NCBI RefSeq assembly: GCF_002854065.1
Contig: NZ_CP024147.1
Direction: 5' to 3' (one strand)
Length of the DNA: 64,000 nt
From: Escherichia coli
GTDB lineage: Bacteria; Pseudomonadota; Gammaproteobacteria; Enterobacterales; Enterobacteriaceae
The notes below the pieces were generated by a model. The model made no database searches. It saw nothing but the letters and a program-made list of their open reading frames with translations, and was not told the DNA's origin. Both the position numbers and the translations under genes were made by a program. Of this stretch, positions 51,092-59,243 are shown one piece after another (position 1 is the stretch's first letter; every line of letters starts with the position of its first letter).

Positions 51092-51958
51092 CTAAGCGAG
51101 GTTCTTGTTTTCAAATTGTTCCGGACTGAGGCCGCCACACCAACTGTGCCGCCGCCACCGATTGTAATCACATTCGATATAATTAAACACCGTTGCCCGC
51201 ATTATTTCCCGGCTGATAAAGTGTTCTCCATGGATACATTCCACTTTCAGCGAATGAAAGAAGCTTTCCACGCAGGCATTATCGTAGCAGCAACCTTTTG
51301 CGCTCATACTTCCACGCAGATTATGCCGCTTCAGTTGCGCCTGATAATCTGCTGAACAGTACTGGCCTCCACGGTCCGTGTGAACGATAACGTTCCGGGG
51401 CCTCTTACGCCGCCACAGCGCCATCTGCAGGGCATCGCAGGCCAGTTGCGCCGTCATGCGTGGCGACATTGACCAGCCAATAACGGCACGTGACCACAGG
51501 TCAATGACCACTGCCAGATACAGCCAGCCTTCATCTGTACGTAAGTACGTGATGTCTCCTGCCCACTTCTGGTTCGGGCCACTGGCGTAAAAATCCTGCT
51601 CCAACAGATTTTCTGACACAGGCAGGCCGTGTGCGCGGTAGCTGACCGGGCTGAACTTCCGGGAGGCCTTTGCCCTCAGTCCCTGACGGCGCAGGCTTGC
51701 CGCCACGGTTTTTACGTTAAAGGGGTAACCCTGAGCACGCAGTTCATCCGTCAGGCGTGGGGCACCGTAACGCTGTTTTGACCGGGTAAAAGCCGCGAGG
51801 ACAACGCTGTCGCAGTGTTGGCGGAACTGCTGACGCGTGCTTATCCTTGTCCGCCGCTGACACCACGTATACCAGCCGCTGCGGGCCACCCGGAGCACGC
51901 GGCACATTGCTTTGATGCTGAACTCAGCCTGATGTTTTTCAATAAAGACATACTTCAT
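51092..51958 (-). CDS. insF: IS3 OrfB (InsF), DDE transposase
   Basis: 288 aa [38 protein letters not shown]. Confidence 0.88.
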
Positions 51959-52254
51959 TTCAGGCGCTTCGCGAAGTATGTCGCGGCCTTTTGGAGGATA
52001 GCCAGCTCTTCATCCCGTTCTGCCAGCTGGCGTTTGAGACGTGCAATCTCGGTAGACATCTCCAGTTCACGTTCAGAAGACGTCTGCTGATTTTGCTGTT
52101 TACTGCGCCAGTTGTAGAGCTGTGATTCATACAGGCTGAGTTCACGGGCTGCGGCAGTAACACCGATGCGTTCAGCAAGCTTCAGGGCTTCACTGCGAAA
52201 TTCAGGCGAATGCTGTTTACGGGGTTTTTTACTGGTTGATACTGTTTTTGTCAT
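51955..52254 (-). CDS. insE: IS3 OrfA (InsE)
   Basis: [53 protein letters not shown]. Confidence 0.88.
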
Positions 52255-52319
52255 GTGAGTCACCTCTGACTGAGAGTTTACTCACTTAGCCGCGTGTCCA
52301 CTATTGCTGGGTAAGATCA

Positions 52320-52676
52320 AACAACCGCCAGCGCCTGATTGATGATTTTCAGGCTCAGCCTGGGTTTGGGGTGATTATTCTCTCTACGGTTGCTGTCGGG
52401 TTTGGCGTTAACGTCCAGAAAGCCAATCATGTGATTCATTTTACTCGCTGCTGGAATCCAGCCAAAGAAGATCAGGCTACGGATCGGGCGTATCGCATTG
52501 GGCAAACTAAAGATGTGTATGTCTATTACCCAACTGTGAGAGATACTGAAATCACAACATTTGAAGAAACTCTGGATAACCTCCTACAACGCCGACGAGC
52601 ATTGGCCAGAGATATGCTCTGCGCTACTCCCGATTTGAACTGTGGGGATTTTGAGACCATTTTGAAGGGAGCCTAA
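52320..52676 (+). pseudogene. C-terminal fragment of an SNF2/superfamily-2 helicase, split by IS3 and lacking its N-terminal domains
   Basis: ...IDDFQAQPGFGVIILSTVAVGFGVNVQKANHVIHFTRCWNPAKEDQATDRAYRIGQTKDVYVY (helicase motifs V-VI); in-frame upstream continuation across the IS3 duplication hits a stop at 51008. Confidence 0.6.
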
Positions 52677-53237
52677 CCGATATGAGCGGCAATACTACCA
52701 GTTGCCAAACCTGAAATAACACTTAGCTGTGATGATTCGCTATTACCTATCGATAGCTTCGGAAAACATAAATTAAAAATGCCCAGAGGAGTACTATTAT
52801 CGTTAGCATTACCCGAACGCCGTATTAACGGTTATTTATTGGTAAGTGCTACGTTCCATGGCAAGAGTTCATCAACAGGTTGGAAGGCCATTCCGGCAAA
52901 ACTCTCAGTATATGGCGCAGATACCATTCAGACAGCAGGTCCCGCTCAGCCCGTACAGTAGAGCGCCGTTCACTACCGTAATCGCTACCGAAGAACACAT
53001 TGATTGCCCCTCAATAATCCTGCTGTTAACATCAAAATTGTTGGTCGGGCTCGATTTATTTAATTGTGTAAACAGGGTCTCTCAGAGAAAGGCCCTTATG
53101 CATCACCTGACGTTAAAAGTCACTACACCCAAGATGACGTTCAAAGTGTCATAGTCCCCTGCGCTGAGGACAAAGCCACACGTTAACAACAAATCCACGC
53201 GATAACTTACGATGGTTCGGGCATAAGCCCCCATAAT

Positions 53238-53801
53238 TCAGTTATGTCGTGGTCGGCCGCGGTTACTTTTTTCGGGAAGCCTGCTACGGCCCAGAATAAT
53301 ACCGTGTTCTTTCTGATCCTGTTTAGCCAGGTAGCTGAGGGCGTAACGTAAGTCGTCTACCGCAGACTTATCACTATAGTGAATCACGTGATCGATACGC
53401 ACCGGGTATTTATCTTTAGCCCGGCACAGGTGAAAATAACCATCCCCTTCCGTGATCCGCCTCCAGATATCTCCCAGTTGCCTGGATATCTGATAAGAGT
53501 TCTTATGACGTTGCCCATCTAGGTAACCGATAAAATGAATATGAAGTCCCTTGTTTTGTGTATATTCCATTACCCAGTAATATCCCGCCAACATCGATTG
53601 GGTTTCGCTAAGTAAACGGTATATTTCCATACACATACTGTGCTTACAGGAATGCCCGAAACTGGGCGTGTCTTTCCTGTAGGCAAAATCAATTCTGAAA
53701 GGTAACAGTTTAGAAAAACGTTGAAACATACCGTCCATGTGTTCATTCACATCTTTCAGAATCGCGAAATTCATTTCGTAATTGGGATTGGCATTATACA
53801 T
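53238..53801 (-). CDS. YagK/YfjJ-family protein (inovirus Gp2-like, putative replication initiation)
   Basis: 187 aa, MYNANPNYEMNFAILKDVNEHMDGMFQRFSKLLPFRIDFAYRKD; family from memory. Confidence 0.55.
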   Translation of the reverse strand: MYNANPNYEMNFAILKDVNEHMDGMFQRFSKLLPFRIDFAYRKDTPSFGHSCKHSMCMEIYRLLSETQSMLAGYYWVMEYTQNKGLHIHFIGYLDGQRHKNSYQISRQLGDIWRRITEGDGYFHLCRAKDKYPVRIDHVIHYSDKSAVDDLRYALSYLAKQDQKEHGIILGRSRLPEKSNRGRPRHN

Positions 53802-54676
53802 TTTATAGTCCTTACTTTATAAAACTCACAGGAAGGTGGAATTACATAAATACTGAGAGTACAGAAACGCCGTACCACTGCATTAATAAACTGGGTAACC
53901 AGTATGCAGACAACCTGATAAAACTGTTTCTTATTACCTCATTACAGTAATGGGGGTAATACTTCAGAATACAGTGAGGCTCTCTTAAACAGAGGACCAG
54001 TAAGAATTACAATGGTAAAAACATACCCCATAGAATTAACTTTAAGGAAACACCATTCAATCACTTAAAGGAAGTAATCTGACATTCACAAAAGTCAGTA
54101 TCGGGTAGCTACAGGCAACACCGCTATTGATACTCCCGCACCATTAAGTAAAAACATCAACTCAGCTTAAGGCCTCTACAGATATTTAATCTCCACCATA
54201 AACAATAACGGAGCTATAACGTACGAACCAGACACACATTCAATGATTAACTTTCTCAATATTACACTATGAGAAAGTGACATAATTTAACATATAACTA
54301 AACAACATACACTACTCACTGATGTATATACATCACATACCTACAGACTAAGCAGAATGGTCAGCATAAAGAGGAGCGACAATACGATAAAAAGAGATAA
54401 AACAATATAACAGATCACATAACTCCCACTAATAATACTAATTAACCTAAATTATTTATTGAACACGAGAACAATGAGGGAACCTCCTCATCTAGGACTA
54501 AAGCCAGCAATATCCTGAGCAACACTCTATCCAATAGTAAATAATGGTTATACCAGTTATATTTGCTGACTGACCTGTACCAGAGTTCTGTAATACAACA
54601 ACGCTGACATGGTAAAGGCATTAGTCTCCTCCGCAAGTAGCAGAGGAGACTATATGTTACTCAACGATTAAGTCGT

Positions 54677-56110
54677 TCAGAGGTCAAAGTTAGGTGCGAC
54701 ATACCACGTTTTTCCCTCAATAACCGGTACAACTCTGTTTTGTTCATACAGTAAATCCAGTAACCAATTGATTTTATCCTTTTTCCGGAAACGGTTCGGA
54801 CCACGCTGTAAAATGTCATTTTTTTTCATACAGGGGATCCCCTTCTCAATGCAATAGCTTTTTATCCAGTTAAAAAGTTCAAGCTCCTCTGGAATGAGTC
54901 GCACAGGTACGGTCAGGGCAGAGTTTTCAAACGTTAACGGACTGGATAACCGAACATACTCATTACCATACCATATTGCTAATTCTCTCGCCATTTCAGC
55001 AGTGTAGGGGGAAATGTCACCTTCCTCACCGCTAAAATGGTGAATAAGTCCTGCCAGTCTTGCCATATACTCTGCATTTTTAGCAGCATATTCTCTGAAG
55101 TCTCTTAAAGGCCCCAGAACCGACATCTTCGATTCCACATCGTTGTAATAGTCCGTCCAGATTCTGGCTGCCTGAGGAGAAAAGTGAAGGCAACGCCGCT
55201 CTCCCCTCATCGCCAGGCTTTCATCAATGAGTTCATTTATCCTCTGTTCAAACAAATCCTGATACTGTGATGAATAATTATCTCCTGTTATTATCCTTGT
55301 CCCCTGCGTTGATGTTGGTTGACACATCAAAAACCTTGCATGATGTCCCGACGTTTTCACAAGTTCTTTTTTTCGTGTACAAAAACCTTTGTGGTAAACA
55401 TCAGGCTGAACCATCACCGATATCGTCAGTCTTGGTTCCTTCAAAAAAATTCCGGGAGATGATTTCCTGTCGATGAAAAGAGAACCACCATCCCACAAAG
55501 AGTTAAGTATTCCCAGTTTACTCATTGCCCGGCTGTCAAAAATTATCCCACCTTCACTGGATACAAGAGCAAAAGAGCGATTGCTATCAGAATAATATTT
55601 TAACATTCCCTCTATCGTTGTATCATTAAAAATTGTTCGATGTATCTGTGGTGGAACAGGACACTTATTCAGATGTGTTTTAAGCTCTGATTCTGTTGTC
55701 TTATAATCTTTACCGGCACGAATCTCTTTATGAAGTTTTGACTCCAGTGCTTTTTGTTTTTGCTCCCATATTTCCTTTTCTGTACTGTAATTCTCAACCA
55801 GTTTCGCGTATTCTTCCGCCAGGGCTTCATCCCTGAGATAAAATGCTTTCATAAACACTTTATCCACGGTCGTTTTCCTTTCACCAGAATCAGCCAGAAT
55901 CATAGAGTAAATATTAGAGGACCCACGTAAATTTCCTGGCCTGCACACATCAACCTGATTCTGACAGGCAATTGACATCGCTGTTAATGCTGCAGTTATC
56001 GCCATAGCTATAGGTGTCTGTGTATTCTTTTGAGTTTCAATTATTGCATTTCTCGCCAGCGGTGGCATTGCATATATCGGACAAGGATTTTCTGGTGCAA
56101 GTAAGCACAT
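54677..56110 (-). CDS. YfjI-like DUF3987 protein (putative primase/replication protein of P4/PICI-like elements)
   Basis: Start chosen at MCLLAPENPCPIY by alignment with the duplicated 5' fragment; family from memory. Confidence 0.55.
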   Translation of the reverse strand: MCLLAPENPCPIYAMPPLARNAIIETQKNTQTPIAMAITAALTAMSIACQNQVDVCRPGNLRGSSNIYSMILADSGERKTTVDKVFMKAFYLRDEALAEEYAKLVENYSTEKEIWEQKQKALESKLHKEIRAGKDYKTTESELKTHLNKCPVPPQIHRTIFNDTTIEGMLKYYSDSNRSFALVSSEGGIIFDSRAMSKLGILNSLWDGGSLFIDRKSSPGIFLKEPRLTISVMVQPDVYHKGFCTRKKELVKTSGHHARFLMCQPTSTQGTRIITGDNYSSQYQDLFEQRINELIDESLAMRGERRCLHFSPQAARIWTDYYNDVESKMSVLGPLRDFREYAAKNAEYMARLAGLIHHFSGEEGDISPYTAEMARELAIWYGNEYVRLSSPLTFENSALTVPVRLIPEELELFNWIKSYCIEKGIPCMKKNDILQRGPNRFRKKDKINWLLDLLYEQNRVVPVIEGKTWYVAPNFDL

Positions 56111-56358
56111 AAATGCCTCTCTTTTCATTAATGGGTTAGTAAAGTAGCAGCAACTCCCGCTATAATAGCGAAAATAGCTGCTGTTCAGACCTAATGTTCT
56201 GAAAAATACAGAATATCTGTAGATCTGATGTTTAATAACCGATAAGGTTAATTCAGTTCAGACTGTGTTATTTACCACGAAATATCATTCATGTTTCTCA
56301 TTCTTAACACCTCCTAAAATTATTTCACTAACACCTTCCCCCCGGTCTTTTTCCTTTC

Positions 56359-56586
56359 TCAGGAATCAGCCAGAACCATAGTGTAAATATTAACGGGCCC
56401 ACGTAAATTTCCGGAGCTGCACACGTCAATCTGATTCTGACAGGCAATTGACATCGCTGTTAATAATGATGTTGTAGTCATAGCCAGAGATGCTTTTTCA
56501 TTTTGTTGAGTTTCAATTATTGCATTTCCAGTCATTGATGGTTGCGCATATACTGGATACGGAGTATCCGGTTTGATGTAAGACAT
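56359..56586 (-). pseudogene. Duplicated 5' fragment (75 codons) of the YfjI-like gene
   Basis: MSYIKPDTPYPVYAQPSMTGNAIIETQQNEKASLAMTTTSLLTAMSIACQNQIDVC... parallels the N-terminus of the 54677-56110 gene; part of a ~330-bp segmental duplication. Confidence 0.5.
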
Positions 56587-56691
56587 AAATATTCCCTTTT
56601 TTCGTAATGACTTTCGGTTATAGCAGCTATTTCCGCTACAATAGCAACAATAGCTGCTATACAGACTGGATATACTGAAAATACAAACAGT

Positions 56692-56940
56692 TCATCTGGT
56701 CTGTATCCAGCAGAGAAGGTCACTTAACAACCATCCGCAAGATTTCTTTCCGATAGACTTACGTGGTGGAAATTTTCCCTCCCGTTCAAGTTTCCACGCT
56801 TGCGTACGAGAAACTGACGTGATCTCATATCGTTCCTTTTCACGTACCAGTCTGTCGCATTCAATCCCATAAGCTTTCAAAATGACCAGACGCTGTTCAT
56901 CTGTTAATGGAAGCCACATACTACCCTCCTGATATATCAA
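56692..56940 (-). CDS. alpA: AlpA-family phage/island transcriptional regulator (winged-helix DNA-binding)
   Basis: C-terminal ...ITSVSRTQAWKLEREGKFPPRKSIGKKSCGWLLSDLLCWIQTR resembles AlpA/Vis; true start may be the internal Met at 56919. Confidence 0.65.
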   Translation of the reverse strand: MIYQEGSMWLPLTDEQRLVILKAYGIECDRLVREKERYEITSVSRTQAWKLEREGKFPPRKSIGKKSCGWLLSDLLCWIQTR

Positions 56941-57611
56941 TACTTTTTATTTCCGGCATGAGCATGAAATGACTAAGTTTCCCGGATAAACAATGAGTGA
57001 AAGTCACTGTCATTCATCCAGCCAACACCTTGCAAATAAAATGTAATACTATGATTTTTATAGGTCAAAATACTGAATTACAATGTTAAAATGGCTTTTA
57101 ATAGAAAAAATAAAGACATATAGAGCCAAATAAAAATAAACTACGACAAATAAAAACAAAAGATTAATATTAAAAATCCATTATGACGATTTTTATTGAC
57201 TAAAATCAGGTTGGGATATATAAATAAATCCATGTAAAATTCAAACAAGGCATGGAGGAGTCGCAGGAAGGTGAAATATTTCCATCTAATTTGTGATAAT
57301 CATCACAAAAATAAGCTACAACAAGCGGAGGAAAAGACAATCTGTTGCTGAACAGACAGAAGCAGGCTACGAATGATCGGAAAATGAAGCAAATACGCTT
57401 ATACAGAAGACGCAGGGGTAACTGACGGAGACAATCACAATCAGGAGAAAATGATCGTAAATAATGTATAAAATCTCAGGATATAAACAAATGTACACAA
57501 GCTATCCACGTAATCTGCGGCTGGCTCAGGATTAACGTTTCATTTCAGTGGACGACATCGATTCTGTCTGACAGTGGGCCAATATGTGGCAAGCAGAAAA
57601 CTTCTGACATC

Positions 57612-59243
57612 ATGGTAACTCGGACAATGCAACAAAAGTATGATCGTGTTTTATCTGGCGAATCCCATCCATTCCCTGGCATATACGAGGCGGTTTCCGA
57701 ACAACTCCTTTTGCTCATCTTTAAGGCTCGTCAGCTATATCAGAATCCAGAATATCGCCCCTGGTTTGAAGAACAGCACAGAGTTCTCTCTGCATTACGT
57801 GCTAATACAGAGCTCTTGAGAATATTTAGAGAACAAAGAAACGCGGAAGAACCAGAGCTTATTATTAAAGAATCTACATTACCCCTACTCACTAATTCTA
57901 ATCTTACAGATGCGCTTAATATTATGTGCCATTTATACAATGGTTTTGATGAAGGAAATATCAGTCTGAAAACCTGGGGGGCGATGCAAGAGGTACAGAC
58001 AACATCAACCTTTATCAGCCCGGGACCGAGAACCTGGAAAACACCTGAACTGGCAAAGTTTGTAGGAGATGATTTATTTAATATTCTGACTGAATGTAAA
58101 GCCTGGAGTTCACCAATTCCAGCAGAAACCCGACAGGGCTATTGCCATCAGGATCTGTCTGTTGCACACTCCTGCACCTCAGAGTTACTGGCACACCTGA
58201 ATCAATACCATGAAATTGATGAATCAGCAATACTTGCCAGAGTTATTGGTATGACGGTTAACGGATTCTACAAGAAAAATAATACAGACCTCCCAGAATG
58301 GCTATCCCCCTTTAAAGAGGAACATAAAATATTCAGAGATTGTCTGGAGCAAAAGACCGAGGATGTAATCAGACTGAAAGAACAACTGTTGAAAACAGGA
58401 CGTTCAGAATTCGTGAATAATTTGTGTCGGGTCGCCAACTGGTATGAAATTAAGTCAATATACGATGAATATGTCCGTCTTTATGCCAATGAAATCATTG
58501 GTTGGTTCAACAAAACCATGGAATATTTTAAACCAACAGATTTTATCCGATATACATGGAAATTCGCAACAGTTACTCCAGGTAAAGAGACAGAAACCAA
58601 GCATACAACTGCATGGGAAAAGGATTATTGCCAGATAACTATACAACGTGATGAACTTCTGAGATTGATTCACACGAATACCCTTCAGGATGCAGTAATT
58701 TATCTTTGCCATTGTCTGCAGAAGAAATACAAGAAATCATCCCAAAATGAGATAGAGTTTCCAGGAATAAAACCTCCGGCATCAGAGAGTGAAATTAATA
58801 TAACAGATAGTTTTGAATTTTATTCTCTCCTGGAGCTCAGTAAAGATAATGAGAGACGGCTGGAAACATTTCAAAAATGGTATGAAAAAAATAAAGTTTT
58901 GTTAGAAAGTCATAAACAAAAACGAACAGAGAAGATTGACGTTGCCGTACGACTTGTAGGGCTGAAAGCCTATGATCTGCATGAAGGGATTCCGGATAGT
59001 CCAAAACGAAAAGTTAAAGATGGCATAAATGAAGACATCAAAGCCGATACCAGTTTACGCCTGCCAAAGACAAATATAAGTGATACGTCGCTAAACCGTT
59101 ATCGCCGCACTGTTAAGGAGATTATCAATAACGAAATCGACGCATTCCTGTTGGAACAGAAGAAAAAAAATAAAAGATTTCCCTACAGTGAAGATAGAGA
59201 TGTGATTCGACCTTTATGGGGAAAATGCCTGACCGGGCAGTAG
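57612..59243 (+). CDS. Hypothetical protein, 543 aa, no recognisable domain (candidate novel cargo gene A)
   Basis: Long uninterrupted ORF in lower-GC DNA between alpA and the terminal integrase; I could not match any motif (no Walker A, no obvious nuclease or polymerase signature). Confidence 0.6.
   Translation: MVTRTMQQKYDRVLSGESHPFPGIYEAVSEQLLLLIFKARQLYQNPEYRPWFEEQHRVLSALRANTELLRIFREQRNAEEPELIIKESTLPLLTNSNLTDALNIMCHLYNGFDEGNISLKTWGAMQEVQTTSTFISPGPRTWKTPELAKFVGDDLFNILTECKAWSSPIPAETRQGYCHQDLSVAHSCTSELLAHLNQYHEIDESAILARVIGMTVNGFYKKNNTDLPEWLSPFKEEHKIFRDCLEQKTEDVIRLKEQLLKTGRSEFVNNLCRVANWYEIKSIYDEYVRLYANEIIGWFNKTMEYFKPTDFIRYTWKFATVTPGKETETKHTTAWEKDYCQITIQRDELLRLIHTNTLQDAVIYLCHCLQKKYKKSSQNEIEFPGIKPPASESEINITDSFEFYSLLELSKDNERRLETFQKWYEKNKVLLESHKQKRTEKIDVAVRLVGLKAYDLHEGIPDSPKRKVKDGINEDIKADTSLRLPKTNISDTSLNRYRRTVKEIINNEIDAFLLEQKKKNKRFPYSEDRDVIRPLWGKCLTGQ

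Follow-up and report, generated by a model that had tools for sequence, protein, structure and literature searches.

The 64,000-nt stretch of Escherichia coli contig NZ_CP024147.1 (assembly GCF_002854065.1) analysed here, referred to as the window, carries near ssrA an island with a CP4-57-type backbone, in which the 5' end of yfjI and its upstream region, including a 38-bp palindrome, occur twice. The minus-strand genes of this island comprise an integrase gene, two hypothetical genes, alpA, a partial DUF3987 coding sequence, yfjI and a gene annotated as 'inovirus-type Gp2', and positions 54600-57000 are 99.9% identical to many complete E. coli genomes. Along the minus strand, alpA is followed by the proximal copy of the repeat, an 88-bp AT-rich spacer, the distal copy, which is joined to the intact yfjI, and the Gp2/YfjJ-like gene; the K-12 counterpart has the order alpA-yfjI-yfjJ with one 128-bp intergenic region. 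Within each copy, the upstream part is denoted U and the coding part N, numbered 1 in the distal and 2 in the proximal copy. The features are the following:

56692..56919, minus strand: alpA-like gene from the open reading frame (ORF) list, 75 aa, excisionase/regulator family, directly upstream of the proximal repeat copy
56311..56698, minus strand: proximal repeat copy (U2+N2), made up of the final bases of alpA, the intergenic stretch that holds palindrome 2 and what remains of yfjI codons 1 to ~92
56622-56659, no strand assigned: palindrome 2, AGCAGCTATTGTTGCTATTGTAGCGGAAATAGCTGCT; with one more bp on each side it has a perfect 13-bp outer arm that encloses the inner GCTA/TAGC pair
56359..56586, minus strand: N2, a 75-codon open remnant of the yfjI 5' end, pseudogene, ending just before the conserved SGERK(T/S) P-loop-like motif, with homology running on to 56311
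56223..56310, minus strand: unique AT-rich spacer of 88 bp that separates the copies (~30% GC over 56221-56330)
55835..56222, minus strand: distal repeat copy (U1+N1), comprising the upstream region, in which palindrome 1 lies, and codons 1 to ~92 of the intact yfjI
56146-56183, no strand assigned: palindrome 1, AGCAGCTATTTTCGCTATTATAGCGGGAGTTGCTGCT; outer AGCAGC/GCTGCT, inner CGCTAT-T-ATAGCG, 35 nt upstream of the yfjI ATG
54677..56110, minus strand: intact yfjI, 477 aa from the start assigned by the Prokaryotic Genome Annotation Pipeline (PGAP), a DUF3987 P-loop protein and predicted replicative helicase with a C-terminal winged helix
53238..53801, minus strand: Gp2/YfjJ-like gene, 187 aa, downstream of yfjI, PGAP 'inovirus-type Gp2 protein'

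A repeat finder returned two direct-repeat families, both with an offset of 476 bp (55839-56133 versus 56315-56609, 75%; 56145-56205 versus 56621-56681, 79%). Pairwise alignment of the repeat units gave a mean column identity of 78%, and a BLAST comparison of unit against unit matched them on the same strand with 76.1% identity over 376 nt (E 1.2e-69). The original prediction, made from the letters of the window, had proposed a direct repeat of about 330 bp and about 80% identity at this place; the repeat proved real by all three methods, but it is wider (~385 bp, reaching from the 3' end of alpA to around yfjI codon 92) and has an identity of 76%. The start codons at 56110 and 56586 on the minus strand had been correctly assigned. 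Similarity is not limited to the coding part, since the homology includes the upstream 112 nt, where it is carried almost wholly by the 38-nt palindrome: identity between the copies amounts to 54% in the 5' flank, 82% (31/38) in the palindrome, 49% in the leader between palindrome and ATG, 76% in codons 1-75 and 71% in codons 76-92. Thus, a segmental duplication of the yfjI 5' end together with its upstream region is supported.

Both inverted repeats hold up as well. On either strand they form hairpins well beyond shuffled sequences, with DNA z-scores from -3.7 to -6.1 and none of 200 shuffles as good; palindrome 2 reaches -13.9 kcal/mol as a DNA hairpin (z -6.1), the value for palindrome 1 being z -3.7. 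Their common core, GCTATTNNNGCTATTNTAGCGG, has exactly two occurrences in the 64-kb window, where 0.04 would be expected. In both, two GCTATT units are followed, after 3 nt, by two units of the AATAGC type. In one other E. coli strain (L089, NZ_OW968011.1) palindrome 2 holds an extra tandem 9-nt GCTATTGTC, giving three direct half-sites on the left arm, an iteron-like slippage in unit number.

The aligned set of eight two-copy loci, which represent only three to four independent lineages, shows that the palindromes change less than their surroundings. Mean pairwise difference is 0.037 in palindrome 1 and 0.059 in palindrome 2, compared with 0.13 in the adjacent pseudogene and 0.10-0.17 over leaders, flanks, pseudogene and remaining spacer. 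Variable sites make up 7/75 (9%) of palindrome positions and 97/397 (24%) of the surrounding non-coding and pseudogene positions (Fisher p = 0.0035), so that both palindromes vary two to three times less than the DNA beside them and each in this respect behaves as a selected cis-element; palindrome 2 taken alone against N2 gives a marginal result (4/38 versus 51/205, p = 0.058).

The proximal yfjI fragment, on the other hand, is a pseudogene, which has lost its frame and is under relaxed selection. Its stop codon arose by substitution (GGT to TGA), and homology to yfjI runs about 50 nt past it. In other strains there is a 1-nt insertion together with a 12-nt deletion (L004), or a deletion of 10 nt (L005). 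The annotated products measure 75, 65, 49 or 38 aa, or PGAP marks the coding sequence as partial ('incomplete; missing C-terminus'), and 24 columns of N2 in the eight-locus alignment are gapped. The ratio of nonsynonymous to synonymous substitution rates (dN/dS) among orthologues was 1.2-1.8 for N2 versus 0.15-0.72 for the live N1. As a gene-fragment scar left by a duplication it is ordinary and already annotated, and it shares with the common gene-fragment pseudogenes of mosaic islands the truncated 5' copy, the stop codon, the indels, a dN/dS around 1 and the PGAP label of partial DUF3987 coding sequence. Unlike these, it carries a conserved cis-element, in an arrangement fixed in about one quarter of the complete E. 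coli genomes. On these comparisons the palindrome appears to be the selected unit of the duplication, which stays while the gene part decays.

The spacer is diagnostic of the two-copy state. BLAST searches with it against the compared yfjI loci and 5426 complete E. coli genomes recovered it in the same two-copy context only, and its translation by eye gave no remnant of an alpA C-terminus. It was found in 1337 of the 5426 genomes, O157:H7 and Nissle included. N2-like sequence was present in 1398 genomes, and the single-copy version therefore occurs in only about 60 (e.g. O121:H19, L006). Across island classes, proximal copies are 84-98% identical to proximal copies and distal copies 87-92% to distal copies, and those of the window follow this rule, whereas cross-comparisons give 72-78%; the duplication is, on this evidence, older than the divergence of the island classes. 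A full-length yfjI with an N2-like 5' end was sought and none was found, and the single-copy islands (e.g. O121:H19, L006) resemble U1/N1 (90%), their identity to N2 being only 79-83%. These results agree equally with duplication in situ and with recombination between two island lineages. A simple crossover between U2 and U1 was ruled out as the source of L006, along which U1-like and U2-like character states alternate.

Outside a small block the spacer evolves almost neutrally. This block is a 9-codon mini-ORF, ATGAGAAACATGAATGATATTTCGTGGTAA (MRNMNDISW*), at 56301..56272 on the minus strand, with a strong AGGAGG Shine-Dalgarno sequence at 56315..56310, on the boundary between spacer and proximal copy. 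Over the eight loci it shows two changes only, both silent (AAC/AAT and TAA/TGA), and its mean pairwise difference of 0.064 sets its conservation on a par with that of the palindromes. It could be a leader peptide, a device for translational coupling or against polarity, or a promoter element.

Beyond E. coli islands of this type, the palindrome follows yfjI. A homologous sequence of the same GCTAT..GCTA/TAGC..ATAGC type, CTGCTATTTCyGCyATTAATAGCGGAATAGCA, precedes yfjI by 26-70 nt in K-12 and in 16 loci of other Enterobacterales and metagenome-assembled genomes, among them loci of Dickeya, Phytobacter, Pectobacterium, Yersinia, Kluyvera, Kosakonia and Citrobacter. A loose symmetric pattern was met 29 times in 608 kb of yfjI loci versus ~0.2 times in shuffles. 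The same palindrome accompanies AlpA proteins of the window type and of the K-12 type, which align over 29 C-terminal residues only (31% identity), and in O157-type islands alpA has been swapped, the homology to the window that BLAST detects starting at the palindrome edge. By its distribution, the palindrome is linked to yfjI and not to alpA. In Kosakonia pseudosacchari (L022) and Enterobacteriaceae RIT714 (L023) a different, near-perfect palindrome, GTATCAGTTGTG..(10-11 nt)..CACAACTGATAC, takes the place of the GCTAT palindrome about 33 nt upstream of yfjI; these loci have a K-12-type AlpA (63% identical) and a YfjI about 54% identical to that of K-12, and their palindrome may be an alternative specificity class. 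In the loci of other genera with a window-type AlpA (L007-L019), the alpA stop codon is followed, just before the palindrome, by a long T-rich tract, e.g. TTTTTTGCATTTATTTTTT, which may serve for unwinding, as an UP element or as the tail of a terminator.

The two arms of the palindrome covary. In the alignment of 28 distinct variants, with 20 symmetric pairs, 85% of cells pair versus 74.5% in shuffles, the covariation score is 0.294 versus 0.135 (reached in none of 500 shuffles, with slid controls far lower), and both sides have changed in 11 of the 20 pairs. The stretches that connect the invariant GCTAT blocks to the GCTA blocks change jointly (TTCC/GGAA, TCCT/AGGA, TCCG/CGGA, TTCT/AGAA, TTTT/AAAA and AACC/GGTT). 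Pairs of the G.T type fall on the sense strand 34 times and on the antisense strand 30 times over all variants, and because there is no overall strand bias, the constraint bears on duplex DNA or on both strands instead of on one transcript. By clade, the counts are 10 sense versus 15 antisense in the K-12 clade and 14 versus 0 in the window clade.

A covariance model built from the palindromes (palindrome 1 scores 48.2 bits and palindrome 2 51.8 bits) was searched in 64 loci outside the K-12 clade at E <= 0.01 and matched 30 of them. In about 20 of these, from distant Proteobacteria, the element unfolds into two inverted sets of three to four iterons with a 9-nt period, GCTAT/GCTAC/GCTAA on one side and ATAGC/GTAGC/TTAGC on the other, such as GCTATTCCT GCTATTCCT ... 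AACAATAGC AACAATAGC, or three units of TGCTACACC opposed to three of GTGTAGCAA. These arrays begin 20-183 nt (mostly ~40-55) 3' of the yfjI stop codon, in one case (L063) between convergent genes, and the spacers of 20-40 nt between their iteron sets are not notably AT-rich. Elsewhere the compact form precedes alpA, by about 300 nt in Pseudomonas and Serratia and by 1.3 kb in Shewanella, or is placed between yfjJ and yfjI (Chromohalobacter). GCTA-type iterons were also sought 3' of the window yfjI, with none found; at 54622-54652, 25-55 nt after its stop codon, lies a 13-bp inverted repeat, TAGTCTCCTCCGC / GCAGAGGAGACTA, with a 5-nt loop, no U-tract and no relation to the GCTA iterons. Our search of the literature on yfjI, DUF3987, AlpA and iterons found no description of the GCTAT palindrome.

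Of the genes that accompany this element, yfjI and the Gp2/YfjJ-like gene encode predicted replication proteins. YfjI matches Pfam DUF3987 (E 5.7e-85) and PHROG 2373 'DNA helicase' (E 7.7e-60), and its homologues are often fused to primase domains (Toprim, PriCT or Prim-Pol). Sequence searches of the PDB with YfjI gave no match; its AlphaFold model (mean confidence, pLDDT, 83.7) has MCM subunits as the best PDB folds (E ~1e-5, TM score 0.3-0.4), with residues 407-473 arranged as helix-helix-helix-strand-strand behind a flexible linker. By analogy, the MCM-like fold suggests loading as a double hexamer. DUF3987 proteins have been predicted to act as helicases in the replication of mobile elements (PMC5862659). 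In plasmid and phage collections we found no YfjI as the sole replication protein beside an annotated origin, but only large plasmids or misassigned chromosomes and two weak phage matches. In E. coli H8 (L003, NZ_CP010172.1, 1-3272) yfjI is truncated by an inserted segment resembling a small MobQ/MobC mobilisable plasmid, with a replication initiation gene.

The Gp2/YfjJ-like protein has weak Pfam matches to REP_ORF2-G2P (E 8e-4) and YagK_YfjJ_C (E 5e-3), and its translation contains an HUH-like HIH motif (GLHIHFIGY) and a two-tyrosine YxxxYxxK-like motif (RYALSYLAKQ), as in rolling-circle replication proteins; K-12 YfjJ has HYH and DYMTKV. It is probably an HUH-type replication protein of the yfjI module. 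The alpA-like gene is annotated by PGAP as 'AlpA family transcriptional regulator' in the 99.9% identical locus and matches PHROG 2790 'excisionase and transcriptional regulator' (E 5.7e-23). None of the five proteins examined matched an NCBIfam family. Divergent from alpA, a 543-aa protein is encoded at 57612-59243 on the plus strand; it is kept beside this alpA type in several E. coli islands, and no match to it was found in NCBIfam or PHROGs. The 670-bp AT-rich region between the two genes, the expected place of an AlpA-controlled promoter, contains 34-nt direct repeats (AAAATGTAATACTATGATTTTTATAGGTCAAAAT) at 57038-57071 and 57173-57206, 71% identical and 135 bp apart. Beyond the Gp2-like gene, at about 51590-52925 and in the flanks, the annotation of the corresponding locus (L001) lists a frameshifted group II intron reverse transcriptase (ltrA) and fragments of IS4/IS5 and IS481 transposases.

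We infer the binding protein, the origin status and the role of the second copy from comparative anatomy, and on that basis hold it about evenly balanced that the duplicated palindrome is an initiator-binding site, origin or operator, of the island replicon. Inside the alpA - yfjI - yfjJ/Gp2 replication module of the CP4-57-like island, part of the sequence would have been duplicated long ago, or two related islands would have recombined and left a scar; the fragment N2 is decaying neutrally, and the two 38-bp palindromes would be the functional part. Each palindrome would be a compact set of four GCTAT/GCTA-type half-sites, arranged head to head with a 9-bp period and bound by the island initiator, that is the P-loop helicase YfjI, which is MCM-like and ends in a winged helix, possibly together with the HUH-type YfjJ/Gp2. 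By way of the winged helix, the four half-sites may serve to load two YfjI oligomers of opposite orientation, in a manner that resembles the use of inverted repeats by the Rep proteins of phage-inducible chromosomal islands (PICIs) and Staphylococcus aureus pathogenicity islands (SaPIs), by P4 alpha or by viral helicase-initiators. Because the site stands directly upstream of yfjI in Enterobacterales, it is probably also an autoregulatory operator that senses the initiator level. The proximal palindrome would be a second initiator-binding site that survived the partial duplication and is kept by selection, perhaps for titration, handcuffing or cooperative loading; if the palindromes are initiator iterons, the initiator could be titrated or handcuffed by an additional set, in the way known from iteron plasmids.

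This initiator-site interpretation draws on several known systems. PICI and SaPI origins offer the closest comparison: in Gram-negative PICIs the origin directly follows the initiator gene on its 3' side and in every case has two iteron sets around an AT-rich region, and a pri-rep-ori segment of EcCICFT073 drives plasmid replication (Fillol-Salom et al. 2018, PMC6092414). Reading the EcCICFT073 locus 3' of its primase gene, we found TCTACC repeats and inverted GGTAGA repeats around an AT-rich stretch. Like this origin, the yfjI arrays are two opposed sets of short iterons beside the initiator gene of an integrase/AlpA-type island, in the 3' position in about 20 loci, and the PICI module order int - alpA - initiator is common to yfjI islands. 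The iteron differs (GCTAT/GCTAC versus TCTACC), and the yfjI initiator is a stand-alone DUF3987 protein with no detectable similarity to CFT073 Pri-Rep (E 0.077). Unlike PICI origins, the candidate element of the window is collapsed to 2+2 half-sites around a 3-nt centre, lacks an AT-rich spacer, stands 5' of the gene and is present in two copies.

In satellite phage P4, ori and crr are two clusters of initiator-binding repeats, octamers of the TGTTCACC type, about 4.5 kb apart and bound by the alpha primase-helicase. The island of the window, P4-like and of the CP4-57 family, resembles it in that a regulator of the AlpA/Vis type precedes a helicase-type initiator with a winged helix at its C-terminus, and in having two separated repeat clusters in cis; YfjI, however, has no primase domain and belongs to another family, and the palindromes may not both be needed. 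Iteron plasmids have an inverted iteron upstream of rep for autorepression and extra sets that titrate or handcuff the initiator (the F repE operator and incB/incC; P1 incC/incA). They are the framework nearest to the titration site that the original prediction had also considered, but their Rep proteins consist of two winged helices with no helicase domain, and the window has no array of direct-repeat iterons. The viral helicase-initiator origins of simian virus 40 (SV40; site II, GAGGC x4) and papillomavirus (the E1 site) are built of head-to-head pentanucleotides. As in the window, four short half-sites (right, right, left, left) occupy a palindrome of about 30 bp beside the gene of a hexameric AAA+ helicase-initiator, a likeness of architecture only, with no homology of protein or site. 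Taken as a whole, the palindrome is a widely conserved and covarying element of iteron type that belongs to the YfjI replication module, and it is best classed with the origins and operators of the PICI/P4 type.

Several observations weigh against an initiator site, or at least against a functioning origin. The element stands 5' and not 3' of yfjI in the window and in all Enterobacterales loci, where the gene has no iterons behind it, and a position directly upstream of the gene fits an operator as well as an origin. An AT-rich spacer between the iteron sets was not found in the window or in the Enterobacterales palindromes, whose centre measures 3-5 nt, and nothing there stands out as a melting region. 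Were YfjJ a nickase of the rolling-circle type, an element with two working origins would be expected to split into two circles, a point against full origin status for both copies. The palindrome does not strictly track YfjI phylogeny either: three loci whose YfjI is 53-59% identical to that of K-12 (L021-L023) have no GCTAT palindrome, yet it is kept with YfjI proteins only ~31% identical. The distal part of the island looks degraded, because a broken group II intron and insertion sequence (IS) remnants adjoin the module, and replication of the island in the window may have ceased. To these are added the few lineages behind the conservation test and the Rho-dependent terminator reported upstream of K-12 yfjI, considered below.

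Among the alternatives, a purely transcriptional role survives best, although we regard it as clearly less probable than an initiator-binding site. The palindrome would be an operator for yfjI, at a weak or activator-dependent promoter, or a roadblock in the alpA-yfjI operon, bound by an island-encoded dimer other than AlpA, e.g. YfjI itself in an autorepression like that of RepE at the F repE operator, and the second operator would merely have been carried along. The distance of 26-70 nt to the yfjI ATG in all Enterobacterales loci suits this role, as does the position ~300 nt upstream of alpA in Pseudomonas and Serratia, a possible promoter region of the operon; palindromes upstream of rep genes are the classic autorepression operators of iteron plasmids, and the centre of palindrome 1 holds TATTAT/TATAAT-like hexamers. 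Nevertheless, our scan of the minus-strand upstream regions of both copies gave no sigma-70 -35/-10 site (16-18 nt spacing) at 9/12 matches, so that the promoter module proposed in the original prediction is unproven; an activator-dependent promoter may be compatible with this result. More difficult to reconcile with an operator are the iterons 3' of yfjI in about 20 loci, including those between convergent genes in L063, where there is no promoter to regulate, and the conservation of palindrome 2, which only a dead gene follows.

A more elaborate form of the initiator-site interpretation, which we consider doubtful, makes the two palindromes a bipartite control region, with palindrome 1 as origin and operator and palindrome 2, 476 bp off, as a partner in cis that loads or handcuffs a second YfjI oligomer, comparable to P4 ori/crr and P1 incA. 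Were this true, the partial duplication itself would have been selected, which would explain its fixation in about one quarter of E. coli genomes despite the decay of the fragment. More broadly, the GCTA-iteron element would then mark the origin, not mapped before, of AlpA-type islands and satellites with DUF3987/YfjI, a very large family spread over Gamma- and Betaproteobacteria.

Conversely, the proximal copy might be nothing but a neutral scar, with the conservation of palindrome 2 due to chance or to gene conversion from the distal copy. N2 is clearly decaying, the comparison of palindrome 2 with N2 is marginal and draws on few lineages, and U1 and U2 share some character states within a lineage (e.g. 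L005), which hints at gene conversion. This explanation nonetheless seems improbable to us: the perfect 13-bp outer arm of palindrome 2 is better than that of palindrome 1, the palindrome is kept in 1337 genomes while single-copy forms are rare (~60), and the two copies agree at 82% of positions within the palindrome but at only 49-54% in its flanks.

Slightly less probable still is that the hairpin acts as RNA in the alpA-yfjI transcript, as a processing site, a stabiliser, an attenuator or part of a Rho-dependent terminator, the duplication having doubled the barrier. The sense hairpins are more stable than the antisense ones (-21.8 versus -15.7 kcal/mol in copy 1, -23.7 versus -20.9 in copy 2), and all 14 non-Watson-Crick pairable cells of the window clade are G.U on the sense strand, a weak point towards an RNA role that comes from two related lineages. 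A very strong Rho-dependent terminator has been reported upstream of yfjI in CP4-57 of K-12 (PMC9160355), which keeps a role in RNA or transcription in play. Against it, the G.T pairs are unbiased over the 28 variants, the K-12 clade leans the opposite way, and the element occurs on either side of yfjI, even past its stop codon between convergent genes. An intrinsic-terminator scan found none at either palindrome, with no U-tract (tails ACTTTACTAACC and ATAACCGAAAGT), and an Rfam scan of 53000-58000 at a permissive threshold returned only a sub-threshold microRNA hairpin on palindrome 2 (22.8 bits versus a gathering score of 110).

The original prediction's first candidate, a duplicated AlpA-responsive promoter-operator module, has the position of alpA directly upstream of the proximal copy and the activation of downstream genes by AlpA in E. 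coli PICIs (PMC6092414) on its side, but we think it very improbable, as one palindrome accompanies two AlpA types, K-12-type AlpA proteins in L022/L023 go with a different palindrome, alpA was replaced in O157-type islands, whose BLAST-detectable homology to the window starts at the palindrome edge, and the iterons of about 20 Proteobacteria lie 3' of yfjI, away from alpA.

Few carriers of anti-phage and virulence cargo are as common in Enterobacterales as the CP4-57-like int-alpA-yfjI islands. The duplication described here is an ordinary evolutionary scar, yet also a natural experiment, in which the decaying gene part and the retained palindrome mark the selected unit. The covarying, yfjI-linked iteron element, present in dozens of genera, is a concrete candidate for an origin or operator, and it makes the function of YfjI, and of YfjJ, testable.

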